Shown here one piece after another: positions 36,148 through 63,903 of a stretch of 64,000 bases of DNA. Position 1 is the stretch's first letter, and every line of letters begins with the position of its first letter. Source of the stretch: an uncultured Clostridia bacterium (GTDB lineage Bacteria; Bacillota; Clostridia; TANB77; CAG-508); assembly GCA_944387475.1 (NCBI GenBank), contig CALXFB010000006.1:7357-71356 (forward strand). Direction: 5' to 3'. A model generated the notes under the pieces. The model worked only from the letters and a program-made list of their open reading frames with translations, was not told the origin of the DNA and ran no database searches. Both the position numbers and the translations under genes were made by a program.

Positions 36148-38022
36148 ATGGCAGATGGCTCAGTTACTATTGAAATAAATGGGGACAGCAAAGGTTTAGA
36201 AAAAGAAATAAATGGAATAGGAAGTAAAGTTAAAAGTGGTTTTGGAAAAATAAGTAGCATTGCTGGAGCAGCATTAACTGGAGTAACGGTAGCAGTTGGA
36301 GGAGCTGCAACAGCATTAGCAGGGCTTGGAACTGCATCTGTAAATTCTTATGCTGATTTAGAGCAAAATATTGGCGGTATTGAAACACTTTTTAAGGGTA
36401 GTGCTGATAAAGTAATAAAAAACGCGGAAAATGCTTATAAAACAGCAGGTATGAGTGCTAACCAGTACATGGAAACAGTAACAGGATTTAGTGCTAGTTT
36501 ATTGCAAAGTTTAGGTGGAGATACAGAAAAAGCAGCAGATGTTGCTGATATGGCATTAACTGATATGGCGGATAACGCTAATAAAATGGGTACTTCTATG
36601 GAAAGTATTCAATATGCATATCAAGGTTTTGCTAAACAGAATTACACAATGTTAGATAACCTTAAATTAGGTTACGGCGGAACAAAAGAAGAAATGCAAA
36701 GATTATTAGCAGATGCCGAAAAATTAACAGGAGTTAAATATGATATTTCTAATTTAAGTGATGTATACAATGCAATACATGTAATTCAAGGAGAATTAGG
36801 AATAACAGGAACAACAGCAAAAGAGGCGTCAGAGACAATAGCTGGTAGTGTAAGTTCCATGAAAGCAAGTTTTGATAATTTCTTAAATGGAAGCGGAACC
36901 ATAGACCAAGTAATAGAAACAGGCTTGACATCTATACAAAATATCGTTAATGCCGTTGGAGAATTGCTACCAGGTTTAATAGAAAGCGTAGCAAATGCTA
37001 CCCCACAAATTGTAGATGCTATAAATCAAATTTTTCCACAAATTTTAAATTTATTAATTACTAACGCACCTACAATTTTAAGTAGTATCGGACAAATATT
37101 GATGGCATTAACGCAATCATTAATAAATTATATGCCTCAAATTTTAACAATAGCAATGCAGTTAATACAGAGTTTTATAAACGGTTTAATTTTAATGTTA
37201 CCACAAATAATTCAAATGGGTATGCAACTTATTACACAGTTAATAACAGGAATTGCACAAATGCTACCGCAACTAATACCGCAAGCAATAAATGCAATAA
37301 TCACACTAGTTGAAGGTTTGTTAAATAATATAGACCAATTAATAGATGCAGGAATACAGCTAATTATGGGGTTAGCAGATGGATTAATAAATGCTATACC
37401 AATACTAGTAGAAAAAATACCAACAATTATAGAAAAACTAATCCAAGCATTTATTAGAAATTATCCTAAAATGGCAGAAGCAGGTTGGAACCTGATAACT
37501 AAATTAGCTTCTGGGCTTTTACAAGCTCTCCCAAAATGTGCAGAAGCAGCAGGACAAGTTTTTAGTGCTATTTGGAATGGCTTAAAAGAATTGCCAGGAA
37601 TGATTTTAGACATAGGAAAAAATATTGTACAAGGTTTATGGAATGGGATTTCTGGAGCAGCCGGATGGCTATGGGATAAAGTAAGTGGATTTTGTGGAGG
37701 TATAGTCAATAAAATAAAAGGATTTTTTGGAATACATTCGCCTTCAAAATTGTTTAATGAAGAAATTGGTAAATTTTTGGCTTTGGGTCTTGGAGAAGGT
37801 TTTGATGATAATTTAGGCAAAGTCTTTAAAGGTATGAAGTCCGCAGTAAATTTTGAAACACAAAAATTAAGTGCTAATTTAAGCACTACAGCAACGAACA
37901 ACAAAACACTAACAGCAAATATAATTGTAAAACCTGGAGATGTATATATGGATAGTAAAAAAGTAGCAAGAATATTAACACCGAACATGACAAAAACTTT
38001 AAGAGGGGCAGGTGTTTACTAA
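36148..38022 (+). CDS. tail tape measure protein
   Basis: 624 aa. Gly/Ala-rich N-terminus, long hydrophobic helical repeats 'IQ..L..LI', and position after the chaperones. Confidence 0.85.
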   Translation: MADGSVTIEINGDSKGLEKEINGIGSKVKSGFGKISSIAGAALTGVTVAVGGAATALAGLGTASVNSYADLEQNIGGIETLFKGSADKVIKNAENAYKTAGMSANQYMETVTGFSASLLQSLGGDTEKAADVADMALTDMADNANKMGTSMESIQYAYQGFAKQNYTMLDNLKLGYGGTKEEMQRLLADAEKLTGVKYDISNLSDVYNAIHVIQGELGITGTTAKEASETIAGSVSSMKASFDNFLNGSGTIDQVIETGLTSIQNIVNAVGELLPGLIESVANATPQIVDAINQIFPQILNLLITNAPTILSSIGQILMALTQSLINYMPQILTIAMQLIQSFINGLILMLPQIIQMGMQLITQLITGIAQMLPQLIPQAINAIITLVEGLLNNIDQLIDAGIQLIMGLADGLINAIPILVEKIPTIIEKLIQAFIRNYPKMAEAGWNLITKLASGLLQALPKCAEAAGQVFSAIWNGLKELPGMILDIGKNIVQGLWNGISGAAGWLWDKVSGFCGGIVNKIKGFFGIHSPSKLFNEEIGKFLALGLGEGFDDNLGKVFKGMKSAVNFETQKLSANLSTTATNNKTLTANIIVKPGDVYMDSKKVARILTPNMTKTLRGAGVY

Positions 38023-40496: not shown

Positions 40497-41019
40497 ATGA
40501 TAAATTTAGAAAAGATACCATTTGAAAATTTTAAAGAGCCAGCATTAGCAGAAGAAATCTTGATGGCTCTACAAGATAATATAGAAAAAGCAATAAACGA
40601 TAAAAACATAATGACAAGAGAAATTGATAGACAAAATATAACAGCTTCGTCTTCTTGGAAAGGAGAGGAAGTAGCATTATCTACTGTTACGTCTGTAGGA
40701 GAAAAACTAACAAGTGTAGACAATGCAATCAAAATTGGCGCAAACGTTGAACAAGTTTTAGTAAGCTGTAACATTCAAGGAGTTGGACATAGTGGTGCGA
40801 TTGGAGATAAAGATATTTGCATAATGCAGAACAATAACGATGTTGCAAATTTTTATCAAAACTCTGATGTAACAGAAATAGGATATTTAGGAGCTACAAT
40901 AGCACCAAAATTAGTAAATGCTTCTGAAGGAGACGTTTTTTCTGTTACAATTTCTTCACGGAGGCACAGGAACCTTTGAAATATTGAAAGGATATTTAAC
41001 AGTAGAGGTTGTTAAATAG
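40497..41019 (+). CDS. tail/baseplate protein, frame broken at CGG 40959-40961
   Basis: In frame 0 the ORF ends 'TISSRRHRNL*'. The +1 frame from GGA 40960 gives 'GGTGTFEILKGYLTVEVVK*', ending at 41019 just before AGGAG and ATG 41033. Confidence 0.6.
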
Positions 41020-44439: not shown

Positions 44440-45117
44440 ATGAACTATAATGAATTTATTAATGAGTACAATGGAAAATCTTTTGATTATGATGGAGTTT
44501 CTGGGGTACAATGTGTAGATTTAATTAAAATGTATTTAAACAAAGTATTTGGACTTACACCTGGTGCTTGGGGAAATGCAAAAGACTATTACGAAAATTA
44601 CAATAATAATAGTATATTAGAAGCTAATTTTGATAGAATAGCAAATACTCCAGAATTTGTACCACAAAAAGGAGATATATGTGTATGGGGAGCAGGACTA
44701 GGTAACAAATATGGACACGTAGCAATAGCTACAGGAGAAGGGAATACAAGTAATTTTTATAGTTATGATTTAAATTGGAATGGTAAAACAGTTAAAAAAG
44801 TACAACATACATATAAAGGCTTTTTAGGAGTATTAAGAGCAAAAGACCAATCTAAAATTGGTACAGAAACAGTAGTAGAAAATAATTCTAATAAGGAGGA
44901 ATTTGAAATGGCTAAAAAATGGACAAACGGAAGCACAAATGAAGATGTTTATGCAGATGTTAATTTAACAAAGAAAATAGGAACAATATTTCCAAGAGGA
45001 GAGGCAGATTGTTATGGTATAGTAGATGGGAAATATTTAGTATGCTATAATGTTTATTCTGGAAATACAGTAGCAAATAGAAAAACAGGTTTTGTTAAAT
45101 ATAATGGTGGAATATAG
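44440..45117 (+). CDS. endolysin, N-terminal CHAP domain plus C-terminal binding domain
   Basis: 'GVSGVQCVDLIKMY' (Cys) and 'YGHVAIAT' (His) form the CHAP core. Confidence 0.85.
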   Translation: MNYNEFINEYNGKSFDYDGVSGVQCVDLIKMYLNKVFGLTPGAWGNAKDYYENYNNNSILEANFDRIANTPEFVPQKGDICVWGAGLGNKYGHVAIATGEGNTSNFYSYDLNWNGKTVKKVQHTYKGFLGVLRAKDQSKIGTETVVENNSNKEEFEMAKKWTNGSTNEDVYADVNLTKKIGTIFPRGEADCYGIVDGKYLVCYNVYSGNTVANRKTGFVKYNGGI

Positions 45118-45118
45118 T

Positions 45119-45138
45119 AGCTAGTCTTCGGACTAGCT
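45119..45138 (+). terminator. GC-containing hairpin with TTCG loop after the lysin
   Basis: AGCTAGTC-TTCG-GACTAGCT. No U-tract follows. Confidence 0.45.
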
Positions 45139-45139
45139 C

Positions 45140-45168
45140 TTGACAAAATTAAAAAAGAAAATTATAAT
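45140..45168 (+). promoter_or_regulatory. perfect consensus sigma-A promoter TTGACA-17-TATAAT
   Basis: TTGACA 45140-45145, TATAAT 45163-45168. No ORF with an RBS lies downstream before the 45311-45336 hairpin. Confidence 0.6.
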
Positions 45169-45174
45169 AAAAAT

Positions 45175-45336
45175 ATAGTTAAACTTTAGCAAAAGTTGCA
45201 TTTAAAAATGTATGGTATTTTAAAAACACTTTTTTTGTTGAACTATTACACGTAGTGTATTTAAAAATGTGAAATGTTTTAAAATATTTTTTTGTTAAAG
45301 TTTAATAAACAAGAAGACTGTTTATGCAGTCTTCTT
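45175..45336 (+). ncRNA. candidate ~160-nt non-coding transcript with an internal ~40-nt tandem duplication
   Basis: Bounded by the consensus promoter and a 10-bp-stem hairpin (45311-45336). Repeats at 45198-45239 and 45257-45296 share 'ATTTAAAAATGT...TTTTAAAA...TTTTTTGTT'. Confidence 0.35.
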
Positions 45337-45736
45337 ATTCTTCTATTTTTAGTAATTCTTGGAAAGCGTAAATTTTATTATCTTTTATTAAAGCTCTATA
45401 TCTTACATCGTTATTTTTATCGTTTTTGTATATGCCGTCTTCTAAAGATTTAATTTCTATATTATTTTCTAAAATATAATTTTCATCATCTGTAGCTTTT
45501 TTAATTTTTATTATATCTCCTAAAACATTCATCTCTATTTCTGCTATAAAATCTGTATTAAAATCTAAATAGCAGTGTGCTATAACTAAGATTTTTTGTC
45601 CTGTTTTTTTACTAATGTATGTATAATATTCTATATCATCTTTTTCTCCTATTTTTTTCATTTCTAAACTTTTTATAATTCTTCTAAATTCTTTTTCTAA
45701 TATTATTATTTCCTTTTTAAAATCTTCCATTTTCAT
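45335..45736 (-). CDS. hypothetical cargo protein A (133 aa)
   Basis: Third gene of a translationally coupled minus-strand triplet (ATGA overlap at 45733-45736). No recognisable motif. Confidence 0.6.
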   Translation of the reverse strand: MKMEDFKKEIIILEKEFRRIIKSLEMKKIGEKDDIEYYTYISKKTGQKILVIAHCYLDFNTDFIAEIEMNVLGDIIKIKKATDDENYILENNIEIKSLEDGIYKNDKNNDVRYRALIKDNKIYAFQELLKIEE

Positions 45737-46131
45737 TCTCCTTCTATTATTTTTTTTGCATTTTCTATAAAAGATGCAAGTTGTTTTTTATCTCCGTTTA
45801 AAAGTAGTTCTTTTTTATTGTTATCTAATGCTTTATAAAGAAAATATTGATTTTCTTTATAGCCAATAAATTCAACTATATAATCGTTTTTATTAACTAT
45901 ATTTTCTTCTTCGTCTCCGTTTTTTAGCCAATCACCAATAAAAGCATAACCATTATTTTTGTTGCTATCTATATCTAACAATCTTTTTGCCCATCTATTG
46001 TAGCCACTGTTACCTCTTCTAAATTCTGTTTTATAAACTATTTTTTCTTTATTTCTATTACTCAACTCCTCTTTTATTTTATTAAATAAATCATTTAATT
46101 CTTCTGTTTCCATTTCTTTTAAATTTAACAT
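45733..46131 (-). CDS. hypothetical cargo protein B (132 aa)
   Basis: Middle gene of the triplet. No recognisable motif. Confidence 0.6.
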   Translation of the reverse strand: MLNLKEMETEELNDLFNKIKEELSNRNKEKIVYKTEFRRGNSGYNRWAKRLLDIDSNKNNGYAFIGDWLKNGDEEENIVNKNDYIVEFIGYKENQYFLYKALDNNKKELLLNGDKKQLASFIENAKKIIEGE

Positions 46132-46136
46132 ATTTA

Positions 46137-46532
46137 TTATTCCTCCTCGTATTTAAAACAATTTGTATTTTTATTAAACATTTTATTAACTACAAAAATT
46201 GTAGGAGTAAAAGATGCATTATAAACAGGATGTTCTGGACCAGCTTTAAATAAAGAATATTTACTATTTTCTCTTGCATAACCGTACAAATTGTTAAATT
46301 TTTCTAATATCTTATTGTCTACATTACTTCCGGCGTAGTTTATATAATTATTTTTTAATGTATCTAAAGCTCTTTCTAATGTATAATATCCGCCAATTAC
46401 ATTTCCGCAGTATAATCTATCTACTTCCCACATATAAGTAAATTTTTTTCCACTCTTTTCAGCCACCTTAATTGTTTCTTCTAATAATACCATAAAAGTT
46501 TTTTCAAATTTATTAAATTCATATGTTTTCAT
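46137..46532 (-). CDS. hypothetical cargo protein C (131 aa)
   Basis: First gene of the triplet, GAAAGGA RBS, about 33 nt downstream of the consensus promoter. Confidence 0.6.
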   Translation of the reverse strand: MKTYEFNKFEKTFMVLLEETIKVAEKSGKKFTYMWEVDRLYCGNVIGGYYTLERALDTLKNNYINYAGSNVDNKILEKFNNLYGYARENSKYSLFKAGPEHPVYNASFTPTIFVVNKMFNKNTNCFKYEEE

Positions 46533-46564
46533 TTTTAATCATTCCTTTCTCTTAACTTAAATAT

Positions 46565-46593
46565 ATTATAACATGTGCGGACGCAAATGTCAA
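46565..46593 (-). promoter_or_regulatory. perfect consensus promoter TTGACA-17-TATAAT (minus strand), copy 1
   Basis: The minus strand reads TTGACATTTGCGTCCGCACATGTTATAAT. The 30-bp block 46564-46593 is identical to 47014-47043. Confidence 0.7.
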
Positions 46594-46601
46594 TACTTTT
46601 T

Positions 46602-46778
46602 TTAAATTTTTTTAAAGTTTATTATAAGTGTATTTTCACCGTTGTTTTTAGCATCTTTAATTTCTTTTAAATTACCGTCTTTATCTACTAAGTTTAAGTC
46701 TTTCATTTCTTTACTTCCAAAAGCAATTGTGCAACCAGAAATATAGCCTCCACCATTTTTTTTAAAATTCATTTTCAT
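46602..46778 (-). CDS. small protein (58 aa), possibly AbrB/MazE-like fold
   Basis: Start at 'MKMNFKK' after AGAGG. 'CTIAFGSKEMKDLNLVDKDGNLKEI...NTLIIN' loosely resembles swapped-hairpin DNA binders. Own TTGCAT-17-TATAAT promoter upstream. Confidence 0.4.
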   Translation of the reverse strand: MKMNFKKNGGGYISGCTIAFGSKEMKDLNLVDKDGNLKEIKDAKNNGENTLIINFKKI

Positions 46779-46863
46779 TTTCAACACCTCTCTTGATTTT
46801 TTACATTATATATTATATAATTTATATATGCAAGAGAGGAATTATCCTCTCTGCATAACAACT

Positions 46864-46989
46864 TTAGAACATATTGTGTATATCCATTATGTCTTTCCAA
46901 AGTTGTTTACGATGTGCTTGTAGCTTTCTGTTTTTGCGGATAGAAGCTACAAGCATTTTTAATGTGTTTTTCTTTTGTTTCTTTTTCAT
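46864..46989 (-). CDS. small basic protein (41 aa)
   Basis: MKKKQKKNTLKMLVASIRKNRKLQAHRKQLWKDIMDIHNMF. AGGAGG RBS. Lies just downstream of promoter copy 2. The longer track ORF would contain the promoter. Confidence 0.5.
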   Translation of the reverse strand: MKKKQKKNTLKMLVASIRKNRKLQAHRKQLWKDIMDIHNMF

Positions 46990-47014
46990 ATTTATTTCCT
47001 CCTTTCTGATTATT

Positions 47015-47043
47015 ATTATAACATGTGCGGACGCAAATGTCAA
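47015..47043 (-). promoter_or_regulatory. perfect consensus promoter TTGACA-17-TATAAT (minus strand), copy 2
   Basis: Same 29-mer as 46565-46593, including the spacer TTTGCGTCCGCACATGT. Confidence 0.7.
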
Positions 47044-47225
47044 GTATTTTTCAAAAAAAGTTTTAAAAATTTTAAAAATCTTCAAAATGCCTAAAAATAA
47101 AGTAATATAAATATATTACTTGAAAAATAAAAAACCTTAAAAGCGATTGTGAAACGACAAATTTCGACAAACTTTTTACAAAGAATATGTTAAAATAAAT
47201 AAAAAAGAAAAAGGAGATGGTGCAT

Positions 47226-47393
47226 ATGGATTATAAGGAAGCGTATAAAAAATCTCTACAAATGATAAAAGAAAAGAATATTAAAGACGAGAAAGAATAC
47301 ATAGAGCTTGTAAAAACAGAAGGATTACTTAGTATTCCAACAATGGAATATATAAGTGGTAAGAAGATTAAAAAGTTGTTAAAAGAAGGCTAA
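47226..47393 (+). CDS. small hypothetical protein (55 aa)
   Basis: AAAGGAG RBS at 47210-47216. Followed by the hairpin AGAAGGC-TAAGT-GCCTTCT at 47384-47402. Confidence 0.45.
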   Translation: MDYKEAYKKSLQMIKEKNIKDEKEYIELVKTEGLLSIPTMEYISGKKIKKLLKEG

Positions 47394-47408
47394 GTGCCTT
47401 CTTAAAAT

Positions 47409-47437
47409 TTGACAGATTATATATAAAATGTTACAAT
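47409..47437 (+). promoter_or_regulatory. near-consensus promoter TTGACA-17-TACAAT reading across the right att region
   Basis: TTGACA 47409-47414, TACAAT 47432-47437. Confidence 0.45.
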
Positions 47438-47468
47438 AAAGTTGTAAAAAACATAAAAAAAGAGTGTA

Positions 47469-47497
47469 AAAAAGTAATGCAATAAGTAATGCAGTAG
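47469..47497 (+). repeat. right copy of the AGTAATGCA-containing direct repeat
   Basis: AAAAGTAATGCAATAAGTAATGCAGTAG. Matches 9667-9693 except for one inserted A. Confidence 0.8.
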
Positions 47498-47609
47498 CAG
47501 AATTTTTTTGCATATACAGAAAATGTTACAAAGTGCAAAATTATTAATATAGTAGGGATAGAATAATATGGTATATATATAATGATTATTGAAATACTTT
47601 TATCATTGG

Positions 47610-47623
47610 TCACCTACGCCAAA
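47610..47623 (+). repeat. displaced partial copy of the tRNA-Ser(GCU) 3' end, TCACCTACGCCAAA
   Basis: Identical to 9599-9612. No upstream tRNA body is present. Confidence 0.8.
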
Positions 47624-47778
47624 GAAAAAACTTTGCAAATAGCGAAAAAAATTTGTAAAGTTTTTAATTTTATTACAAAAACATTATATTTATATTAAAT
47701 TTCTATTACAATTTGAAAAAATCGACAAAATATTGTATAATTAAATGGATAGAGATAAGATATATTTTAGGAGTGAAT

Positions 47779-48159
47779 ATGAAAAGGAAGATTATAGGAA
47801 TAATATTAATTTGTGTGACTTTAATAATTGCAATAGTAAATGTAAATTATGCGGCAGATACAGATAATGTCCTTATTGATCCTGATCAATATAAACCTAA
47901 CAGCCAGACAATTGTTACTGGGGCGGATAGCTTATTTGATGTTGGAAACATGATAATAGGAGTAGTAAGGATCGTTGGAAGCGTGTTATCTGTTATTGTT
48001 TTAGCAGTAATAGGTATAAAATACATGTTAGGAAGTGTGGAAGAAAGAGCAGATTATAAAACTTCAATGGGGCCATATATTTGGGGAGCAGTTTTAGTAT
48101 TTGGAATAACTAATATACTTGCAATTATAATGGATGTTATTAGCTCTTTTAATAAGTAA
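47779..48159 (+). CDS. VirB2/TrbC-like pilin-type small membrane protein, paralogue 1
   Basis: Signal peptide 'MKRKIIGIILICVTLIIAIVNVNYA', then two TM helices flanking 'IKYMLGSVEERADYKTS'. The track ORF from 47713 is an upstream extension. Confidence 0.55.
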   Translation: MKRKIIGIILICVTLIIAIVNVNYAADTDNVLIDPDQYKPNSQTIVTGADSLFDVGNMIIGVVRIVGSVLSVIVLAVIGIKYMLGSVEERADYKTSMGPYIWGAVLVFGITNILAIIMDVISSFNK

Positions 48160-48181
48160 TTCTTAAAGGAGATGATAGTAT

Positions 48182-48596
48182 ATGAGAAGAAAAATTTTTA
48201 GCATAATATTAACTTGTATATTTTTAATATTTGCAATGACAAATATTAATTATGCAATGGTTGACTCTGGACGGAGGAACTGGAAGTTCAGATCCAACAA
48301 GTGTTGATGATATTTTTGAAGATGCAAATAATTTTATTAATAGTGGTAGTAATTCAACAATAAATACAGACGTTTTACAAGATACAACAGATTTTTTATA
48401 CAACTTATTTTTAGGAGTAGGAATGATTGTAGCTGTTTTGGTTGGAATAGGATTGGGTATACACTATATGGTGTCCAGTGTAGATCAGAAGGCGGATGTA
48501 AAAAAATCACTTTTTTGGTATGCAATAAGTTGTGGAGTGCTATTTGCAGCTTTCACAATATGGAAGATAGCAATACTTGTATTTTCAAATATTTAA
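48182..48596 (+). CDS. VirB2/TrbC-like pilin-type protein, paralogue 2, frame broken at CGG 48272-48274
   Basis: ATG 48182 gives the signal peptide 'MRRKIFSIILTCIFLIFAMTNINYA' + 'MVDSG', then in-frame CGG and a stop 11 codons later. The +1 frame from GGA 48273 gives 'GGTGSSDPTSVDD...' and the two-TM pilin body. Confidence 0.65.
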
Positions 48597-48612
48597 ATAA
48601 GAAGGTGATTGT

Positions 48613-48978
48613 ATGTTAAATAATAAAATGAAGACTTTTATAACATTTATAATGTTAATATTTCTAATAATAAATGTTATATTTATTAATACAACTTATT
48701 GTAGTACTATCAATGATTTAACAGGAGATAATGTACCAACAGAAGTTCAAAATAAAATAGAACAAGTTGGAAATGGTGTAATTACACTAATAACAACAGC
48801 AGGGTCAATTATTTCTGTAATTATACTTATAGTTATTGGTATAAAATATATGATGGGTAGTGTAGAAGAAAAAGCTGAATATAAAAAGACTTTATTACCA
48901 TTTGTTATAGGAGCAATTATACTATTTGCATGTTCAAGTTTAGCTGGAATTATATATAATATTGCAATAAATTTATAA
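48613..48978 (+). CDS. VirB2/TrbC-like pilin-type protein, paralogue 3
   Basis: Signal peptide, then 'IKYMMGSVEEKAEYKKTLLPFVIGAIILFA'. Confidence 0.55.
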   Translation: MLNNKMKTFITFIMLIFLIINVIFINTTYCSTINDLTGDNVPTEVQNKIEQVGNGVITLITTAGSIISVIILIVIGIKYMMGSVEEKAEYKKTLLPFVIGAIILFACSSLAGIIYNIAINL

Positions 48979-49071
48979 ATATAGTATAATTAATATGAAT
49001 AATGTTATTAACATTCTTTGTTTTACCAAAGAGATTAATATAAAATTTAAAGAAAGGAAAAGGTGATTATT

Positions 49072-49425
49072 ATGAAAAAAATATCTAAAGCAGTTTCTAT
49101 ATTGCTAGTAGCATTTATGTTAATATCAATTGTTACACCTGTACTTGCGGTTGGACCAGATCCAACAAACTATCAAGGTGACAATAGTGTTACTACAGAT
49201 AAAATAGATTCATTAGGTAATCAAATTATCACAATTGTAAGTACAATTGGATCAATTGCTTCAGTTATTGTATTAATTGTATTAGGTATTAAATACATGA
49301 TGGGTAGTGCAGAAGAAAAAGCTGAATACAAAAAGACATTATTGCCTTATGTAATTGGTGCAGTATTAATATTCGCAGCATCAACAATAGCAGGTGTAGT
49401 ATTCAATTTTGCAAGCTCACTTTAA
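49072..49425 (+). CDS. VirB2/TrbC-like pilin-type protein, paralogue 4
   Basis: 'MKKISKAVSILLVAFMLISIVTPVLA' signal peptide, then 'IKYMMGSAEEKAEYKKTLLPYVIGAVLIFA'. Confidence 0.6.
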   Translation: MKKISKAVSILLVAFMLISIVTPVLAVGPDPTNYQGDNSVTTDKIDSLGNQIITIVSTIGSIASVIVLIVLGIKYMMGSAEEKAEYKKTLLPYVIGAVLIFAASTIAGVVFNFASSL

Positions 49426-49459
49426 TTAATATAGATAATATAAAAGTAGAAAAATTAAG

Positions 49460-49499
49460 AAGAACATTAGCAAAAATAGATTTGTTAATGTTCTTTTTT
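49460..49499 (+). terminator. rho-independent terminator after the pilin paralogues
   Basis: AAGAACATTA / TAATGTTCTT 10-bp stem followed by TTTT. Confidence 0.65.
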
Positions 49500-49665
49500 G
49501 CTGTGAAAATAATATTAGCCATAATATAAAAATTATTATAAGTACAAATATATTACAATTATATTACAAATTTGTTAAAAATATAAAAAAAACTTTCAAA
49601 ATGTCGATTTTATTAAAAAAATCTGTTATAATATATATGATATTATGCCAATAGGAGGGATAGAT

Positions 49666-50016
49666 ATGCAAATATATGAAATACCAAGAAATTATAAAGG
49701 AGAAAGTAGAATATTATACGTATTTTCTACAAAAGCATTAGCTTATACTGGAATAGGAGCACTAATAGGCGGAATATTTTATTTGCTTTTTAGTGTATTA
49801 GGATTAAGTATGATAGGAATGATATTTGTCGTTGCCTTTGGTATAATTGGATTTGTTATAGGAACTTTTAAAATGCCAGATAGCAAAAGATTTAAATTAA
49901 CAGAAAAAACTGGAGGAGAAGCAATTGACGATGTTATAAAAAGATGGATAAAATTTAAAAAAGGAAAAAATAAAATCTATGTTTATTTAAAGGAGGATAC
50001 AAAAGATGAGCAATGA
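49666..50016 (+). CDS. PrgI-family (VirB3-like) conjugal transfer membrane protein
   Basis: 'IPRNYKGESRILYVFSTKALAYTGIGALIGGIFYLLF' and a second TM. AGGAGGG RBS. Directly upstream of the VirB4 region. Confidence 0.6.
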   Translation: MQIYEIPRNYKGESRILYVFSTKALAYTGIGALIGGIFYLLFSVLGLSMIGMIFVVAFGIIGFVIGTFKMPDSKRFKLTEKTGGEAIDDVIKRWIKFKKGKNKIYVYLKEDTKDEQ

Positions 50017-51205
50017 TCAAATAAGTAGTTTACTTAGTATAGTATTAATTGTAATGTTAGTAGTATTGTTTTTGTTAGTAATAATATATTTTATAGTTAG
50101 AGCAAAAACTAATCCTAAAAAAGAAAAAAAGACAAAAGATAATTTATCACGAGCAAATACAAAAACAAGTACACAAAAATCAACAGCTATTAGTTATAAT
50201 AAGCAATCCATATATTCTTTTATGGAATTTGATAAAATAGAAGATAATATGATAGTTAGAAAGAACGGAAATAAATTTTTAATGGTTATTGAATGTCAAG
50301 GTGTAAATTACGATTTGATGTCAGGATTAGAAAAAAACAGTGTAGAACAAGGTTTTATACAATTTCTTAATACACTAAGGTATCCAATTCAAATTTATGT
50401 GCAAACAAGAACTGTTAATCTTGAAAGCGGAATTATAAAATATAAAGACAGAATAAATGCAATAAGAGACAGATTACAAAAAAAGCAAATGGAATATGCA
50501 AGAAAAGAAGCCATGGGATATAGTCCAGTAGAATTGAATAAAGCGAAATTAGAAGTAACAAGGGAACAAAACTTATACGAATATGGAGTGGATCTTGTTA
50601 ATAATACAGAAAGAATGAGCTTGAATAAAAATATATTAAGGAAACATTATTATATAATTATTGATTATGTACCTGAAGACATTAATACAAGCGATTATGG
50701 AAAAGATGAGATAACAGGTATGGCATTTTCTGAGTTATATACAAAAGCACAAGCAATTATTAGTGCATTAGCTGTTTGTAATGTAAATGGTAAGATATTG
50801 GATTCTAATGGATTAGCAGAATTATTATATATTGCATATAACAGAGATGATGCTGAAATCTATGATTTAGAAAAAGCACTAAATGCTGGATATGATGAAT
50901 TATATTCAACAGGAGAAGATGTTTTACAAAAGAGAATGAAAGAACTTGATGAAAAAATAGAAAGAGATGCACAACAATTAGCAAATGAGTCATTAAGAGA
51001 AGCAATGGTGGAAACAGAAGAACAAAAGAAAGTAAGAGAAAAAGAAGAGCAAATGGATGAATTAATTAAGCAAATGGCTCAAATAATTATAGATGAAAAT
51101 CAAGAACTTGTAGGCAGTGAAGTAGCAGAAAAGGCAAAGGAAAAGGTAACTAAACAAAAAAGAACAAGAAAAAAAGTTACTAAAACTGAAGAAGAGGAGG
51201 GTTAA
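50006..51205 (+). CDS. membrane-anchored conjugation protein with VirB4-N-terminal-like domain and Lys/Glu-rich tail
   Basis: N-terminal TM. 'IEDNMIVRKNGNKFLMVIECQGVNYDLMS...YPIQIYVQTR' resembles the non-ATPase N-domain of VirB4-type proteins. No Walker motifs. Confidence 0.4.
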   Translation: MSNDQISSLLSIVLIVMLVVLFLLVIIYFIVRAKTNPKKEKKTKDNLSRANTKTSTQKSTAISYNKQSIYSFMEFDKIEDNMIVRKNGNKFLMVIECQGVNYDLMSGLEKNSVEQGFIQFLNTLRYPIQIYVQTRTVNLESGIIKYKDRINAIRDRLQKKQMEYARKEAMGYSPVELNKAKLEVTREQNLYEYGVDLVNNTERMSLNKNILRKHYYIIIDYVPEDINTSDYGKDEITGMAFSELYTKAQAIISALAVCNVNGKILDSNGLAELLYIAYNRDDAEIYDLEKALNAGYDELYSTGEDVLQKRMKELDEKIERDAQQLANESLREAMVETEEQKKVREKEEQMDELIKQMAQIIIDENQELVGSEVAEKAKEKVTKQKRTRKKVTKTEEEEG

Positions 51206-51208
51206 TTG

Positions 51209-53161
51209 ATGAGAAAAAATAAAAAACAACAAGAAGAGCAGAAAAAAATACATGAAGAAACAGTAAGTGAAATATTTAAAAAGTCTACTATTAAAGATTT
51301 AATTGCACCATCGGGTATAGATGTTTCAAATATAGATCACTTAGAAATAATTTCAAATACAAAAAGATATGCAAGAAGTTTCTTTGTTTCAACTCTTCCA
51401 AGAATGTGTACTTTCCCAGAGTTATTTAGAGATATGTACCTTTTTGGAGATATAAATACATCAATTTACATTAGCCCTATAAAGGAAGAAAAATCTCAAA
51501 ATGATTTAAATAGAGTAATAAATGAGTTAGAAACAGAAAGAATTGTTGCAGCAGATAGAGGAAATATAAATAGAGAGAGTACTATTACACAAAAAAGATT
51601 AGAAGCAGAGCAATTAAGAGATGAAATTGCAGCTGGATTTAATAAATTATTTGAGGCAACAGTTGTAGCGACATTATTTACATATAATTTAGAAGATTTA
51701 GAAAGATCAACCAAGATGCTTGCATCAGAAATGTCTAAAACAATGGTTGGAATTAAAAGTGCATGGGGAATACAAGAAGAAGCGTTTCAAACAAATTTAC
51801 CTCTTATGAATAATAAAATAACAAAATCACACACATTTGATAGAAATTCAATGGGAACTGTATTTCCTTTTACAACATCTGAAATAGGACATCCATCAGG
51901 AGTACCATTAGGATTTAATAAACAAACGGGAACACCAATACTTTTTGATAATTTCCATAGCTCGCTTACTAACTACAATATGGTTATATTTGCTAAATCT
52001 GGTGCTGGTAAGTCAGTAACTATGAAAACATTAGTATCAAGATCTTCAGTATTGTCTGGTATTGAAAGTTTAGCATTAGATGCTGAAGGAGAGTATACAA
52101 TTGTTGCTGAAAGTTTAGGTGGAATAAATGTAGTACTTAGTCCAACATCTAAAACTATTATTAATATATTTGATGTAGAGACAGAAACTATTAAAGATGA
52201 AATAACAGGTAAAGATAGAGTAGTTTTAAATGTAGAAAATAAGGTAGAAGATGTTACACAAGGTCTTCTTACAATGGCGAAAGGTAGTACAAGAAGTACA
52301 GAAGTAAATGAACTTACAAAACAAATTATTGCTGAAACTGTTGCGGAGGAATATGCAGCATTAGGAATAACAAGCAATCCTAATAGTTTATATGAACAAG
52401 ACACATCAGCAATTTCAAGAGGACAAATACTTTCTAAGAAAAAGAAAAAAATGCCTACAATAGGTAGTTGGTATAGGAGATTAGCTGCAAAAGCTCAAGA
52501 AAATAAAAATCCAGATTATCAATTTCATTATAGTTATTTATTAAAGGTTATGAAACAATACATAAGAGAATATGATGGGCAAATGGCTTATTTTGATGGA
52601 CAATCTACATTTGATCTTTTAGATGGAGCACCTTTTATAAATTTAGATATATCTCAATTGGAAGAAAGATTTGCAAGACCTTTGGCTCAACAAATTTTAC
52701 TTTCATGGATTTGGGAGAAATTCGTTAAGAAAAATAGTGAGGATAGGAAAAAAGCATCTAAGAAAAGAGTTTTAGTAGATGAGGCTTGGATGTTGTTACC
52801 ATATCCAGAAGCTGTTGATTTCTTAAACAAGATGGCAAGACGTGCAAGAAAAAGGAATGTTTCATTGGCTATTATTTCACAAAGGTTCCAAGACTTTTAT
52901 GAAAAGCCTGAAGCACAAGCGGTTCTTACGTCTTCAGACACAAAATTATTTTTAGCACAAGATAAATCTGAAATACAATACTTAAAAGAAGTATTTAAAC
53001 TTTCAGAAGGAGAAGCTAATTTCTTAGTAACTTGTCAAAGAGGTGAAGGATTATTTAAAGTAGGAGCAGACACAGCTATATTAAAAATTACACCAACGAG
53101 AAAAGAATTTGAGTTTGTTGAAACTAACTTAAATGAATTAGCTAAAAAGAAAAGAAACTAA
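51209..53161 (+). CDS. virB4: VirB4-family conjugal transfer ATPase
   Basis: Walker A 'IFAKSGAGKSVTMK', Walker B 'RVLVDEAWMLL', and an N-terminal 'YARSFFVSTLPRMCTFPELF' domain as in Tn916 Orf16/TcpF-type proteins. Confidence 0.85.
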   Translation: MRKNKKQQEEQKKIHEETVSEIFKKSTIKDLIAPSGIDVSNIDHLEIISNTKRYARSFFVSTLPRMCTFPELFRDMYLFGDINTSIYISPIKEEKSQNDLNRVINELETERIVAADRGNINRESTITQKRLEAEQLRDEIAAGFNKLFEATVVATLFTYNLEDLERSTKMLASEMSKTMVGIKSAWGIQEEAFQTNLPLMNNKITKSHTFDRNSMGTVFPFTTSEIGHPSGVPLGFNKQTGTPILFDNFHSSLTNYNMVIFAKSGAGKSVTMKTLVSRSSVLSGIESLALDAEGEYTIVAESLGGINVVLSPTSKTIINIFDVETETIKDEITGKDRVVLNVENKVEDVTQGLLTMAKGSTRSTEVNELTKQIIAETVAEEYAALGITSNPNSLYEQDTSAISRGQILSKKKKKMPTIGSWYRRLAAKAQENKNPDYQFHYSYLLKVMKQYIREYDGQMAYFDGQSTFDLLDGAPFINLDISQLEERFARPLAQQILLSWIWEKFVKKNSEDRKKASKKRVLVDEAWMLLPYPEAVDFLNKMARRARKRNVSLAIISQRFQDFYEKPEAQAVLTSSDTKLFLAQDKSEIQYLKEVFKLSEGEANFLVTCQRGEGLFKVGADTAILKITPTRKEFEFVETNLNELAKKKRN

Positions 53162-53175
53162 ATTGGAGGATAACA

Positions 53176-55977
53176 ATGAAATTTTTTACGAATAAAAGCA
53201 TATGGTCTAAAATAATAATTGTGCTAATATTTGTTTTATTATTTGAATTTGTAGTAGCAAAACCTACGTTGGCAGACGGAGAAGGAGTAAATACGGGAAT
53301 AGAATTTGCAGGAAAATTAATGTCTCCAATATTGTCGCTTGTAGTTACATTAGGAGATGCTGTAATGGAAGTTATGCAATCTTCAATTATGGGAACAGAT
53401 GAATCACTCCTTGAGGCAGATTTAGCAGCTGGATGGTATGATTTGTTAGGATTGATAGTTAAAGCAGTTGTTCTCATAGGATGTTTTATAGCATTTCCAG
53501 CAGCAACAACAATAGCAGTAATAGCAAATTTTATCGCAGCAAATACAATAGGCGTTGATTTGATAGGAACTATTGGTAGTAAGTTATATGATGGCTTGGC
53601 GGATACAGTAGGAATTTCAGCTGTTCAGACAGCTAGCTTTGTAGAAGAAAATCTACCGGAAACATTATATTTACCAGCATATACACTTACACCAGAAGAA
53701 ATATTTAAGGGCAATGTATTAATGTTTAATGTTGACTTTTTTGGAGAGCCAAAAGAAATTCTTGAACATACTACGGATGTTACAGATGATAGTGGTAATG
53801 TTACAGGGCAAGAAGTAGACTATTATTATTACTATGATGATGAGGGAAATGAGGTTAAAACATCGAAACAAGATATTGGTGCACAACTAAGTGGAACAAT
53901 TAGTAAATGGTATGTATCAATCAGGAATATTGCTTTGGTATGTATGATGATAGTACTTTTATATATAGCAATAAGAATGTTATTATCAACGTTAGCATCA
54001 GATAAAGCAAAATATAAACAAATGATACAAGATTGGCTTGTGGGAATGTTAATATTGTTTTCTGCACATTATATTATGGCTTTTTCTGTTACAATAGTAC
54101 AACAATTAGTAAAAATTGTCTCTACAAGTGTAGATTCTAATACATATACAGTAGTAATACCTAATGATTCAAATGATAAATTAATAGATTTTATAAAAGA
54201 AGCAGGGATGGAAGAGTTTATATATGATAGTAATGGACAAAATGCAAATGCGACTGGAACAGATGCATATATTATGTATCCAACAAACATGATGGGTTAT
54301 CTAAGGTTAAGATTGCAATTATCTAATTGGGGAAGTGAATTTGTAGGCTTAAGTTTATGTTTTGTGGTTTTAGTTATATTTACAGCATTTTTTGTATTTA
54401 CATATCTAAAGAGGGTATTGTATATGGCTTTCTTAACATTAATTGCACCAGTAGTTGCTTTAACATATCCAATCGACAAGATAAATGACGGAAGTGCACA
54501 AGGTTTTACAAAATGGTTTAGAGAATATATATTCAATTTATTAATACAACCAATGCATTTATTATTATATTTTATACTAATATCAACAGCATTTGAATTA
54601 TCATCAGAGAATGTAATTTACTCTTTAGTTGCAATAGGATTTATGCTACCAGCAGAAAAATTATTAAGAAGTCTTTTCGGATTTGAAAAAGCATCTACAC
54701 CTGGAATTTTAAATGGAGTAGCAGGTGCAGGACTTATAATGGGAGGTGTAAGTAAATTATCATCATTAACTGGAAAAGGACGTGCTTTGAATTCAGGTAA
54801 TTCTAAAGACAATTCAAGTAGTGATAGTGTTACTTCTACAAAGGCAGTACGTTTTAATAATGGAGTTGATGCAACAGCTGTTATGGCTGCTACAACAGGA
54901 GGAAACGAAAGGAGAATAGAGCCTACACAGCAAGGTTCGAATAATAATAATGATAATAATAATAATAATAATGAAAGAGAAGAAATACCAGTTGCTCCAG
55001 GACAAACACAGTTGGATTTTGGAAATGATGGAAATGATAAAAATGAAGAGAAGCAAAGTATTAAAATGCAAGAGAAAGGGCAAGAACCTAGCCAAGAAGA
55101 GAAAATAGAACAACCAACCCAACCAATAAGAACAGTGAACACAGAAGATAATGATTCAATAGAAGACATGGAAAAGAAATTAGATGAGTTAAAAACACAA
55201 AAGTATAGCGATGATTATAAAAAGAAGGAAATAAAAGGATACAGAAGTAAAAAAATACAAGAAAAAGCAATGAAATTCAGATTAAATACACATGATAGGC
55301 TAGTAAATGACTTTAAGAAACTTCCTGGAAAAACTATAAGATTTGCAGGAGGAGCAGCAGGAGCTGTAGCAGCAGGAGCTGTAGGTATAGCAGCAGGAAT
55401 ATCAACAGGAGATCCAAGTGATGTATTCCAATATGGTGCAGCAGGAGCTGGTGTGGGATACTTGGCTGGAAAGAGTACTACAAGTGGAGTAGCTAGCAGA
55501 GTAGATAATAGCAAGGCAATGCAACCAATAGATTCTAGTTCATATTATAGAAGGTTAATGAATAGTGAAGGTCATCGTGACATAGCGGCAATGGAAGAAA
55601 TAAAATCAAAAAGAGAAGAATATGCTGAAAAGTTAAGAGTTAATGGATTTGAAGATAAAGAAATTAAGAGAATGGAAAAAGACGGAACTTTAAATAGATA
55701 TATAGAAAATGATATTAATGTTGATAATGCAGTTGCAGCAGAAATGATGAGAAAAGAAAATCCAAAAATAACTCAAGAACAAGCAATAGCGGATGTAAAA
55801 TATTCAGATAGAGTTGGTGATGGATATAAAGGACCAGAAAGAAAGAAATGGAGAGAGCATTTTTCAGAGGAATTCTATGAAAAAGCAGGCTTACCTAAAA
55901 CACAAGCTGATAAAGCAAGTAAAGAGACATTGAAAAGAATAGACAGACTTAATAAGTACAAAAAAAATGTATTATAG
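53176..55977 (+). CDS. VirB6/TcpH-like polytopic conjugation channel protein with long hydrophilic C-terminal extension
   Basis: 933 aa, at least 8 TM segments in the first ~500 aa, then an Asn/Gly/Ala-rich low-complexity and charged region. Lies immediately after VirB4. Confidence 0.55.
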   Translation: MKFFTNKSIWSKIIIVLIFVLLFEFVVAKPTLADGEGVNTGIEFAGKLMSPILSLVVTLGDAVMEVMQSSIMGTDESLLEADLAAGWYDLLGLIVKAVVLIGCFIAFPAATTIAVIANFIAANTIGVDLIGTIGSKLYDGLADTVGISAVQTASFVEENLPETLYLPAYTLTPEEIFKGNVLMFNVDFFGEPKEILEHTTDVTDDSGNVTGQEVDYYYYYDDEGNEVKTSKQDIGAQLSGTISKWYVSIRNIALVCMMIVLLYIAIRMLLSTLASDKAKYKQMIQDWLVGMLILFSAHYIMAFSVTIVQQLVKIVSTSVDSNTYTVVIPNDSNDKLIDFIKEAGMEEFIYDSNGQNANATGTDAYIMYPTNMMGYLRLRLQLSNWGSEFVGLSLCFVVLVIFTAFFVFTYLKRVLYMAFLTLIAPVVALTYPIDKINDGSAQGFTKWFREYIFNLLIQPMHLLLYFILISTAFELSSENVIYSLVAIGFMLPAEKLLRSLFGFEKASTPGILNGVAGAGLIMGGVSKLSSLTGKGRALNSGNSKDNSSSDSVTSTKAVRFNNGVDATAVMAATTGGNERRIEPTQQGSNNNNDNNNNNNEREEIPVAPGQTQLDFGNDGNDKNEEKQSIKMQEKGQEPSQEEKIEQPTQPIRTVNTEDNDSIEDMEKKLDELKTQKYSDDYKKKEIKGYRSKKIQEKAMKFRLNTHDRLVNDFKKLPGKTIRFAGGAAGAVAAGAVGIAAGISTGDPSDVFQYGAAGAGVGYLAGKSTTSGVASRVDNSKAMQPIDSSSYYRRLMNSEGHRDIAAMEEIKSKREEYAEKLRVNGFEDKEIKRMEKDGTLNRYIENDINVDNAVAAEMMRKENPKITQEQAIADVKYSDRVGDGYKGPERKKWREHFSEEFYEKAGLPKTQADKASKETLKRIDRLNKYKKNVL

Positions 55978-55992
55978 AAAGAGGCGGTAATT

Positions 55993-56946
55993 ATGCAACA
56001 AATAAGGTTATGGTATAATAATCATAGGAGAAAAATATGGATAACAGTGGGCATTATTGCCGCTGTTATTATAGTAGTACAATTTTTAAATTATTTAGTA
56101 TCGACGACAAAAAACAATGAAGAAGCAAATATAATAACATTGCCAAGTACAAAAGAAGATTTAAAAGAAATAGAGAATGAAACAAATGTAAGTTATGAAT
56201 CAGGTGTTTCAGTGATATCAGGAGAGGCGCAATCAAAAGAAAAATTGAAGACAGCAGCAGAAGTAATAGGAGAGTTTTTTGATTTTTGTAATGAAGGAAA
56301 TATACAAGGAGCATATGATTTGCTTACAGACGACTGTAAGGAACAAATATATACATCTTTAGAAAGTTTTGAAAAAGCATATTACCAAGATGTATTTGCC
56401 GGAGAAGAAAGAATTTATTCAGTAGAAAATTGGATAGGTGACATATATAAGGTAGATATTACAGAAAATATGTTAGCAACTGGAAAAAGTAATAACGGAT
56501 ATGTAAAACAAGATTATATAACAGTAGAAAAAGTAGACGATGTATATAAATTAAACATAAACAATTATATAGGAAAAACACAGATAAATAAAGAGACAGA
56601 TAAGGAAGATATAAAAGTTAATGTATTATACAAGAATACATATATGGATAGAGAAGAATACACAATAAGTGTTACAAATAATAAAGCTACAAGTATTTCT
56701 TTAGATAGATTATATGATGTTAATTCATTGTATTTAGAGGATAGCAAAGGAATGAAGTATCCAGCATATACACATGAAATGACAAGTCCTATGCTAGAAG
56801 TACAATCAAAGGAAACAAAGGAAGTTACAATTAAATTCTATAGTAGATATACTTCTACTAAAAAAATTGAAAATTTAGTATTTTCAGATTTAGTTATATG
56901 GAATGACCAATTAACCTCAACTATGGAATTTAAGGCAGAAGTATAA
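55993..56946 (+). CDS. membrane-anchored conjugation accessory protein (TcpC/Orf13-like position)
   Basis: 317 aa, a single N-terminal TM 'IWITVGIIAAVIIVVQF' followed by a soluble domain. Assigned by position only. Confidence 0.35.
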   Translation: MQQIRLWYNNHRRKIWITVGIIAAVIIVVQFLNYLVSTTKNNEEANIITLPSTKEDLKEIENETNVSYESGVSVISGEAQSKEKLKTAAEVIGEFFDFCNEGNIQGAYDLLTDDCKEQIYTSLESFEKAYYQDVFAGEERIYSVENWIGDIYKVDITENMLATGKSNNGYVKQDYITVEKVDDVYKLNINNYIGKTQINKETDKEDIKVNVLYKNTYMDREEYTISVTNNKATSISLDRLYDVNSLYLEDSKGMKYPAYTHEMTSPMLEVQSKETKEVTIKFYSRYTSTKKIENLVFSDLVIWNDQLTSTMEFKAEV

Positions 56947-56973
56947 AATGTTATAACAAAGAGAGGATAGGAT

Positions 56974-60654: not shown

Positions 60655-60666
60655 AAGGAGGAAATT

Positions 60667-61842: not shown

Positions 61843-61857
61843 AAATAGGAGAAGAAG

Positions 61858-63474: not shown

Positions 63475-63477
63475 AAA

Positions 63478-63510
63478 GAGGGAGCACTTCGGGAGGCTGC
63501 CCTCATTTTT
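63478..63510. terminator. GC-rich hairpin, bidirectional terminator between convergent genes
   Basis: GAGGGAGCACTTCGGGAGGCTGCCCTC followed by ATTTTT. Confidence 0.55.
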
Positions 63511-63534
63511 AAACTCTAATAAGAGTTTAGTTAT

Positions 63535-63804
63535 TTACGGTTTGAAGATAACAAGCAGTATGAGAACTCCAACTCCACCAGCTATTAGCGAACCTATAAA
63601 ATTTCCTGTATCATCGCTAATTGTTTCAGGAGATTTTATTGCATCTACTACAGTGAAAAATGCATTTAGAATCAATCCTGATGGAATAAAGATGGCTAAT
63701 ATAGTTAAAATTAGATCTATAATTCCCCAAGAAGCTTGAGCTAATCCGTAAATGCAACAAAGAATAAATAAGATTGCAATTCCAATAGCTTCCATACCTG
63801 TCAT
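63535..63804 (-). CDS. small membrane protein (89 aa)
   Basis: Three hydrophobic segments. Convergent with the permease-like gene. Confidence 0.5.
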   Translation of the reverse strand: MTGMEAIGIAILFILCCIYGLAQASWGIIDLILTILAIFIPSGLILNAFFTVVDAIKSPETISDDTGNFIGSLIAGGVGVLILLVIFKP

Positions 63805-63903
63805 TTTTTCTCCAATCTCGTAGAAAAACTATACATAATAATAGTATAATATAAAAAATAATAAAAAACAAGTAGGGATTTACTTGTTTTAATGGGATAG
63901 TTA

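Follow-up and report, generated by a model that had tools for sequence, protein, structure and literature searches.

Cracrs are viral RNAs that resemble CRISPR RNAs (crRNAs) and reprogram the Cascade complex to silence cas transcription (10.1101/2024.10.29.618823). The arrays listed in that preprint belong to types I-C, I-E and I-F, and type I-B appears there only as a predicted target type (10.1101/2024.10.29.618823). Cracrs are reported to cooperate with co-encoded anti-CRISPR (Acr) proteins, for which clustering and synergy were described (Liu et al., bioRxiv 10.1101/2024.10.29.618823), and the vicinity of acr genes, up to 1 kb away, is reported to be enriched in the genes of RNA anti-CRISPRs (Racr; Camara-Wilpert et al. 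2023, PMC10651486). Among the proteins, AcrIF24 is a characterised I-F anti-CRISPR which binds Csy-RNA complexes (10.1101/2024.10.29.618823), and the CasPRs are DNA-binding Acrs, defined by CapR and AP2 domains, which silence cas transcription (10.64898/2026.02.23.707548). Here we describe a locus in which a predicted Cracr array adjoins a set of small protein genes. It lies at the right end of a prophage (9599-47623) in a 64,000-nucleotide stretch of DNA from an uncultured Clostridia bacterium (GenBank assembly GCA_944387475.1, contig CALXFB010000006.1, positions 7,357 to 71,356 of the forward strand). This whole stretch is called the window, and positions are counted from its first letter.

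The reading we favour, with even confidence, is that a repressor-gated operon of anti-CRISPR or anti-defence proteins and a type I-B Cracr array together make up one mobile island. Counter-defence is preferred because the array is adjacent to the protein genes, because spacers of the host match the prophage and because the family of one of the proteins, B, recurs beside crRNA mimics. From these sequence comparisons we infer that the cargo proteins are most likely of the anti-CRISPR or another anti-defence kind, and B is the best anti-CRISPR or Cracr-associated candidate among them.

The predicted Cracr array and the host CRISPR-Cas system

The array occupies 45140-45310 of the plus strand, directly downstream of the last protein gene, C, and convergent with it, and outside the coordinates of an earlier annotation of the protein genes made from the letters alone (the original prediction). 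It begins with a perfect consensus promoter (45140-45168, +), the third in this region, whose spacer contains no palindrome. The promoter is followed on the same strand by a repeat mimic (psiR1, 45178-45207), a guide (psiS1, 45208-45236), a second repeat mimic (psiR2, 45237-45266), a second guide (psiS2, 45267-45293, ATGTGAAATGTTTTAAAA...) and a degenerate psiR3 from 45294. The two units, 57-59 nt each and starting GTTAAACTTTAGCAAAAGTTGCATTTAAAA and GTTGAACTATTACACGTAGTGTATTTAAAA, match the host repeat better than any other site in the window, psiR2 agreeing at 26 of 30 aligned positions, and they lie outside the CRISPR-Cas locus and inside the prophage. The Rfam model CRISPR-DR3 gave 35.3 bits at these units, which is below its threshold. 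The array RNA folds far better than shuffled sequences (z -5.8), with unit 1 pairing with the degenerate unit 3. A bidirectional terminator hairpin (45311-45336), an 11-bp stem followed by a T-run, is common to this transcript and to the convergent operon of the protein genes.

In the host cas operon, Cas7/Csh2, Cas5b, Cas3, Cas4 and Cas1b were recognised by NCBIfam, and open reading frames (ORFs) of fitting size and position are present for cas6, cas8b and cas2. Judged by its genes, the type I-B system is apparently intact. CRISPR arrays with the repeat GTTGAACTTTGACAAGTAGTTGGATTTAAAT were found on four contigs of the 1.83-Mb assembly. Upstream of cas6, a TTGACA-17-TATATT promoter comes before TCA and, directly after it, ATGTGAAATGTTTTAAAC; next are a repeat-like element, ATGTGAAATGTTTTAAAAACAC..., another repeat-like element and, last, the ribosome-binding site (RBS) of cas6. 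The autoregulatory mini-array CreR has the same layout (10.1101/2023.03.10.532045). This CreR-like mini-array is located at C24:9790-9950 (L047), between the cas promoter and cas6. Many genomes of the host genus contain similar short matches, which suggests conservation of the element at that level.

The guide psiS2 (ATGTGAAATGTTTTAAAATA...) is identical over 18 nt to the guide of the host CreR-like element and matches the TCA-flanked site in the cas promoter over 17 nt, both being longer than the 9 PAM-proximal nucleotides (PAM, protospacer adjacent motif) that are the least asked of a Cracr guide. A 24-nt exact word is common to the psiS2 region and to C24:9848-9871 upstream of host cas6. 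Because psiS2 copies the host CreR-like guide and matches a cas promoter site beside a TCA PAM, we assign 45140-45310 as a predicted two-unit type I-B Cracr array. In a genus-wide DNA search with the Cracr region, mostly AT-rich noise was returned, save for the cas6-upstream match in the same genome, and scans of IMG/VR for the promoter chassis and psiR2 returned none.

The host also carries spacers against this prophage: out of 36 in the assembly, five match it with 0-4 mismatches and a sixth with 7. The protospacers are found at 21348-21383 (perfect, 36/36), 37276-37310 (2 mismatches), 37019-37054 and 40890-40924 (3 mismatches each), 32699-32733 (4 mismatches) and 18156-18191 (7 mismatches). 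In crRNA orientation, the 5′ PAM flanks of the five matches with 0-4 mismatches are TCA in three cases, the perfect protospacer included, TTA in one and TTT in one. A targeted prophage together with an apparently intact cas operon is a classic predictor of a resident CRISPR inhibitor. At its start, contig C24 has the perfect spacer in two copies, possibly an artefact of the assembly.

The cargo genes, their promoters and their relatives

Five ORFs, all on the minus strand, lie between the CHAP endolysin (lysin, 44440-45117) and attR. The prophage is bounded by two copies of the 14-bp att core TCACCTACGCCAAA, at 9599-9612, which is the 3′ end of tRNA-Ser GCU, and at 47610-47623. The original prediction had placed the genes between lysin and attR as autonomous prophage cargo on the strand opposite to the late genes, and lysin and att core together confirm this. 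Each ORF has an ATG start and a Shine-Dalgarno sequence, and in-frame CGG is found in none of them. Gene A (46137-46532, −) encodes a hydrophilic near-ORFan of 131 amino acids, a candidate counter-defence protein; B (45733-46131, −) encodes 132 amino acids and belongs to an unnamed phage protein family; C (45335-45736, −) encodes an acidic ORFan of 133 amino acids with an isoelectric point (pI) of 5.2. Five nucleotides separate the stop of A from the start of B, and B and C overlap in ATGA, so that the three coupled ORFs are as originally described. Upstream of them are R58 (46602-46778, −), which is basic (pI 9.4) and has 58 amino acids from an RBS-preceded ATG or 61 from an upstream GTG, and K41 (46864-46989, −), which has 41 amino acids, a strong RBS (AAAGGAGG), a pI of 11.3 and a net charge of ~+10.7, in keeping with the highly basic peptide predicted. 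K41 might serve in co-regulation or be one more cargo gene.

The products are all hydrophilic and cytoplasmic, with no membrane segment predicted. Scans of six small proteins, these five among them, with Pfam, PHROGs, PADLOC and NCBIfam gave nothing significant, which agrees with the original statement that the triplet bears no recognisable motifs; K41 has a weak PHROG match (phrog_4724, E 0.0075), and the sole PADLOC match is a spurious Cas10 fragment for B (E 0.0077). No toxin family was matched by any cargo protein. When the PDB was searched by sequence, using profiles for A and B and the single sequence of C, nothing below E 0.03 was returned. Against described Acr families, A, B and C showed no significant match in Pfam, PHROGs, NCBIfam, PDB and Foldseek searches, which included no dedicated Acr database. 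The homology searches of these three and the fold searches with A and B gave no known family, and the original prediction likewise could assign the triplet to none. A, B and C were also considered as mutual paralogues and share no similarity. The suggestion that the 58-amino-acid protein R58 is AbrB-like finds no confirmation in its sequence, as PF04014 and TIGR01439 do not match it even at E<=5, and BLASTP of R58 against the AbrB-like proteins of two related loci (L007 and L012) was insignificant.

In the window there are exactly two copies of the block TTGACATTTGCGTCCGCACATGTTATAAT, on the minus strand at 46565-46593 (P1) and 47015-47043 (P2), with zero occurrences in shuffles, and these are also the only two copies in the assembly. 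The exact 30-bp direct repeat was found by pattern search; a repeat-finding pass over 45100-47500 left it unlisted. Both copies read TTGACA-N17-TATAAT, score 12/12 and have an extended −10 TG, and the spacer of each is a 9-2-9 palindrome, ACATTTGCG-TC-CGCACATGT. The operator thus lies at 46571-46590 in P1, which precedes A-B-C, and at 47021-47040 in the identical P2, which precedes K41 and whose transcription probably reads through into R58. The original prediction was right about the duplicated perfect promoters, about the shared operator-like GC-rich spacer and about the allotment of one copy to the triplet and the other to the basic peptide. Its description of the genes as lysogen-expressed is doubtful, because an operator inside the promoter spacer implies a repressor that holds them down. 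The P1/P2 operator was not found elsewhere in the genome, the cas locus included, and the CasPR-like idea of operator copies at the cas locus was dropped.

Between K41 and R58 lies an intergenic block (46787-46856, −) which is nearly identical in the related phage locus L001. It comprises a hairpin (AGAGAGGA-taat-TCCTCTCT, −), a weak putative promoter P3 (TTGCAT-N17-TATAAT, −; −35 at 46833-46828, −10 at 46810-46805) and the RBS of R58 (AGAGAGGTG, −). The −35 of P3 scores only 3/6, and P3 was not listed in the promoter scan that gave P1 and P2. An inverted repeat, CCTCTCTTG / CAAGAGAGG, could sequester the R58 RBS in transcripts from P2. On the other side of P2, between it and a divergent gene for 58 amino acids (47217-47393, +), there is a perfect 22-bp palindrome, AAGTAATATAAATATATTACTT, at 47100-47121. 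The divergent gene has paralogues elsewhere in the genome, on contigs C22 (86%) and C25 (46%), the C22 copy standing amid chromosomal genes.

An indication of what controls P1 and P2 comes from the alignment with L001. Before the small gene, the DNA that contains hairpin, weak promoter and RBS is ~97-100% identical, and identity resumes over the 19 bp that follow the stop of the small gene together with the −35, and then from the −10 through all of A. Two segments are unrelated. One is the coding sequence of the small gene, R58 in the window and a ribbon-helix-helix (RHH)-like protein of 57 amino acids in L001. The other is a 13-bp stretch of the spacer with the operator core (TTGCGTCCGCAC in the window, ACTGTGCATAGT in L001), both versions being palindromic. 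A similar design is seen in L007, where TTGACA-TTTTACCGTTACGGTAT-TATAAT has the spacer palindrome TACCGTTACGGTA and an AbrB-domain gene lies within the operon, and in L012, where TTGATA-TATTCGTACGAATATCA-TATAAT is accompanied by the palindrome ATTCGTACGAAT in four copies and a divergent MazE-like gene. The small regulators of the relatives are weakly MazE/AbrB-like or RHH-like; MazE_antitoxin matches among them are weak (E 1.4e-4 and 7.6e-3). Because operator core and small gene change together and the design recurs in L007 and L012, we infer that R58 is the cognate repressor of P1 and P2, in an Aca-like role (Aca, anti-CRISPR-associated). The two promoters would then form a feedback pair in which P2-K41-(R58) regulates the regulator and P1-A-B-C expresses the cargo.

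The family of B is the one with a wide distribution. It has 187 representatives at E<=1e-3 and 75 at E<=1e-10 across phages and prophages of Clostridia, no Pfam family, and matches only PHROGs of unknown function. The AlphaFold2 model of B, built from 77 family members, has a pLDDT (predicted local distance difference test) of 92.6 and consists of an N-terminal helix, seven beta strands and a C-terminal helix; Foldseek found no match to this fold in PDB or BFVD. A and C are near-ORFans, with two clusters each among 5.8 billion proteins. None of 300 genomes of the same family contains A, the IMG/VR and JGI metagenome scans returned none either, and BLAST of the region or its proteins against phage and plasmid collections gave no match. 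The AlphaFold2 model of A is poor (pLDDT 64, 4 sequences), and its Foldseek matches are therefore meaningless.

The triplet is not kept as a unit. L001, which has the same CHAP lysin, encodes A and B and lacks C, so C is dispensable there; A, a B variant of 54% identity and C are all present in L010, whose phage has an Amidase_2 lysin; in L007-L009 a B variant (~50% identical) stands behind two unrelated genes, and more distant B relatives sit within yet other small-gene operons. In L002-L006, A forms the N-terminal part of a protein of 221 amino acids, P0002, with an unrelated tail, in a conjugative element; its neighbours are ToxIN or a Dam-like methyltransferase. The idea that P0002 is an A-B fusion ('Rosetta stone') arose from a weak BLASTP hint and was rejected at an hhalign probability of 0.1. 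Since A, B and C are found in differing combinations, the proposal of a three-gene unit fails on the very co-occurrence comparison by which the original prediction had wished it to be judged. This is the pattern expected of independent accessory genes, and, judged by their distribution, the triplet is a mosaic rather than a machine. In L002 (8700-9716) a ToxIN type III toxin-antitoxin system lies directly downstream of the A-fusion gene, with three 36-nt toxI-like repeats followed by the ToxN_toxin gene.

What links B to CRISPR is its company. The Cracr array and A-B(-C) occur together in the window, in L001 and in L010, despite differing lysins (CHAP in the first two, Amidase_2 in the third). 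In L007-L009 an I-B psiR array is convergent with the operon whose last gene is the B variant. In L014 and L024, from Enterocloster lavalensis, a 31%-identical B relative is followed by 2-4 tandem cassettes (L024 5400-5900; L014 6400-7150), in each of which a promoter leads into a type I-C-like repeat end (...GTGGATTGAAAT), with a guide and then a terminator behind it. The E. lavalensis host has a near-identical CreR-like cassette at L053 1440-1570, beside a gene with a Cas5 domain, and further copies of the cassette were seen on contigs C33 and C39 of that genome. The B family thus adjoins crRNA-mimic cassettes in three different genomic settings and two CRISPR subtypes, I-B and I-C. Rfam gave nothing on the distant B loci, and it also missed the known I-C mimics of L014. 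The proteins accompanying B in L014 were considered as solved AcrIC proteins and had no PDB match.

Other features of the prophage include a tyrosine integrase (9699-10865) and a CI-like repressor with HTH_3 and Peptidase_S24 domains (12081-12749). Between them lies the gene for an HSDR_N-domain protein (type I restriction R, N-terminal) of 375 amino acids (11003-12130, −), possibly a cargo gene of the lysogeny module. A tRNA-Trp(CCA) gene (29926-30000) is situated inside the prophage among structural genes. Directly to the right of attR, from 47713 to 64000, is a Gram-positive conjugation module (type IV secretion system) with four VirB2-like pilin paralogues.

The favoured reading and its rivals

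On the reading we favour, 45140-47043 would be one mobile counter-defence cassette at the right end of the prophage. The constitutive consensus promoter would transcribe two crRNA-like units that mimic the host I-B repeat, and the psiS2 guide would load into host Cascade, park it on the promoter of the cas operon and shut off cas expression. A-B-C and K41 would be small cytoplasmic cargo, anti-CRISPR or otherwise anti-defence, acting as separate single-gene units. R58 would bind the spacer operator and repress its own upstream operon (P2-K41-R58) as well as P1-A-B-C. As in acr operons under Aca control, the genes would be expressed in a burst upon entry and then be shut down. A broader extension, which we consider unlikely, is that family B is a dedicated partner of viral crRNA-like RNAs across I-B and I-C and that the small AbrB/MazE/RHH proteins with operators embedded in promoter spacers are a modular class of Aca-like regulators in Clostridia phages that had so far gone unrecognised. 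B might then help the mimic RNA to outcompete genuine crRNAs for Cas6 or Cascade, stabilise the repressive Cascade-Cracr complex, or neutralise back-up toxins of the CreTA type ('anti-anti-CRISPR').

Several points weigh against the favoured reading. The function of the proteins rests on guilt by association, because A, B and C have neither sequence nor fold likeness to known Acr or anti-defence proteins, and the linkage of B to mimics is itself an association, not proof. The distant B homologues in L011, L013 and L015 have no obvious crRNA-mimic cassette nearby, and the relatives of A beside ToxIN do not stand in a counter-defence context. The genome is probably metagenome-assembled and its contamination is 6.6%, so that spacer and prophage may come from different cells of one population. 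The regulator raises difficulties of its own. Known Aca proteins are helix-turn-helix (HTH) proteins encoded downstream in the acr operon, whereas the candidate R58 lies upstream of the cargo genes and has no detectable DNA-binding family; an HTH match was found in none of R58, K41 and P58. The ORF equivalent to K41 is also replaced in L001, so the covariation does not single out R58. Moreover, a CI-like or Cro-like repressor could bind the cargo operator, because the core of the latter, TTGCGTCCGCA (TTGCG-N2-CGCA), resembles the immunity operator of the phage, GTTGCGAAACGCAAC (TTGCG-N3-CGCAA, 12861-12875 and 13112-13126), the presumed target of the HTH_3/Peptidase_S24 repressor or of Cro. The half-sites are shared, with one base less between them in the cargo operator, and a search of the window for TTGCG-N2-3-CGCA gave six strand-hits, from four sites, where 0.08 would be expected. 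The likeness is either a coincidence in a genome of 26% G+C or cross-talk of CI or Cro with the cargo promoters. Overall, R58 is somewhat favoured as the binder; CI or Cro would be an unlikely one, some other protein rather less likely still, and K41 the least likely.

These last observations lead to the alternative that survives best, a possible though doubtful one, in which A, B and C are early or accessory genes unrelated to CRISPR. They might inhibit restriction or abortive infection, or modulate host physiology or the choice between lysis and lysogeny. They would share no more than the variable slot in the right arm with the Cracr array, and their promoters would be switched by the CI-like or Cro-like repressor, the genes being silent in the lysogen and firing on infection or induction. 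The region from lysin to att is indeed a general cargo slot, and the half-sites shared with the immunity operators, the HTH_3 and Peptidase_S24 domains of the CI-like protein, the B homologues that lack nearby mimics and the position of the A-fusion beside ToxIN or a methyltransferase would all agree with it. Against this, the half-site spacing of the two kinds of operator differs by 1 bp, and four independent loci pair a spacer palindrome with an adjacent small AbrB/MazE/RHH-like gene. The alternative also leaves aside that B adjoins crRNA-mimic cassettes in three unrelated settings and two CRISPR subtypes, and that A-B(-C) and the Cracr array are transferred jointly among phages whose lysins differ.

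That the genes form a prophage defence or superinfection-exclusion system shielding the lysogen, which was the original interpretation, appears quite unlikely. Position and orientation are typical of lysogenic-conversion or defence cargo in Firmicute prophages, the operon has promoters and a terminator of its own, and ToxIN, next to the A-fusion, is a defence system. PADLOC nevertheless gave no match, no enzymatic, NTPase, nuclease or membrane domain was found in these small, hydrophilic proteins, and the three genes are not kept as a set. The operator in the spacer implies repression and not constitutive expression in the lysogen, and the immediate neighbour is an anti-defence RNA. Toxin families being unmatched as well, neither the defence nor the toxin/immunity version of the original suggestion is supported.

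A toxin-antitoxin module, with R58 as a MazE/AbrB-type antitoxin and autorepressor and A, B, C or K41 as a prophage-stabilising toxin, is very improbable: R58 is small, basic and placed before larger ORFs, the small regulators of related loci have weak MazE_antitoxin matches and a palindromic operator is typical of antitoxin autoregulation, but R58 itself matches neither MazE nor AbrB, no toxin family was matched, the regulator is split from A by A's own promoter, the L012 regulator is divergent and not co-transcribed, and a toxin would not tolerate absence or swap of its regulator, yet A goes with an unrelated small regulator in L001 and with none visible in L002-L006, and B is found without R58.

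Comparison with described systems

The repressor-gated counter-defence island that we favour can be set beside four described systems. The likeness to Cracr and Racr loci (10.1101/2024.10.29.618823; PMC10651486) lies in the order psiR-psiS-psiR, in the array having its own promoter and in a guide that copies the CreR seed; it concerns the adjacent RNA at 45140-45310 and not the cargo proteins. The two-unit I-B array would be a further member of the Cracr arrays.

With the acrIF24-Cracr(IF) arrangement the locus has in common that one protein family recurs beside Cracr genes in many mobile elements, as B does in I-B and I-C. B differs in having no DNA-binding signature and a fold without match; AcrIF24 also carries an Aca-type DNA-binding domain. 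CasPRs resemble the locus in being phage-encoded in acr loci of Bacillota and in shutting off type I-B cas genes transcriptionally, which is the outcome proposed for the Cracr here. Unlike them, A, B, C, R58 and K41 contain neither CapR nor AP2, and the P1/P2 operator is absent from the cas locus.

The protein part of the locus can be compared with the Aca-controlled acr operons of Pseudomonas, Pectobacterium and Listeria phages. Alike are the small, fast-evolving, mosaic ORFan genes on a mobile element, the inverted-repeat operator that overlaps the core of a very strong promoter, the small candidate DNA-binding gene in the locus, and a host whose cognate CRISPR-Cas system (type I-B) is accompanied by phage-matching spacers. 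A position near the lysin end is likewise found for acr loci in prophages of Listeria and other Firmicutes. The present locus departs from these operons in showing no likeness to any described Acr or Aca, in its duplicated promoter-operator and in the AbrB/MazE- or RHH-like genes which replace the regulator in its relatives.

Type I-B is the dominant CRISPR type in Clostridia, and few inhibitors of it are known beyond those of Listeria and one C. difficile protein. The known ones are AcrIB2 from C. difficile and AcrIB3-16 from Listeria seeligeri. The locus yields four small candidates, A, B, C and K41, of which B is ranked first by three independent pointers, namely host spacers that match the prophage, adjacency to the Cracr and Aca-like control. 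The B family offers an anchor in the search for further counter-defence loci in phages of uncultured gut Clostridia. The swaps of operator and regulator on a constant promoter chassis provide repressor-operator pairs that form a natural orthogonal set. Should the proteins not be anti-CRISPRs, the locus would be ordinary prophage cargo with a neat regulatory design. As an acr locus beside an RNA anti-CRISPR, it would be of a known kind, in which the proteins would represent new families and the regulators would be unusual.

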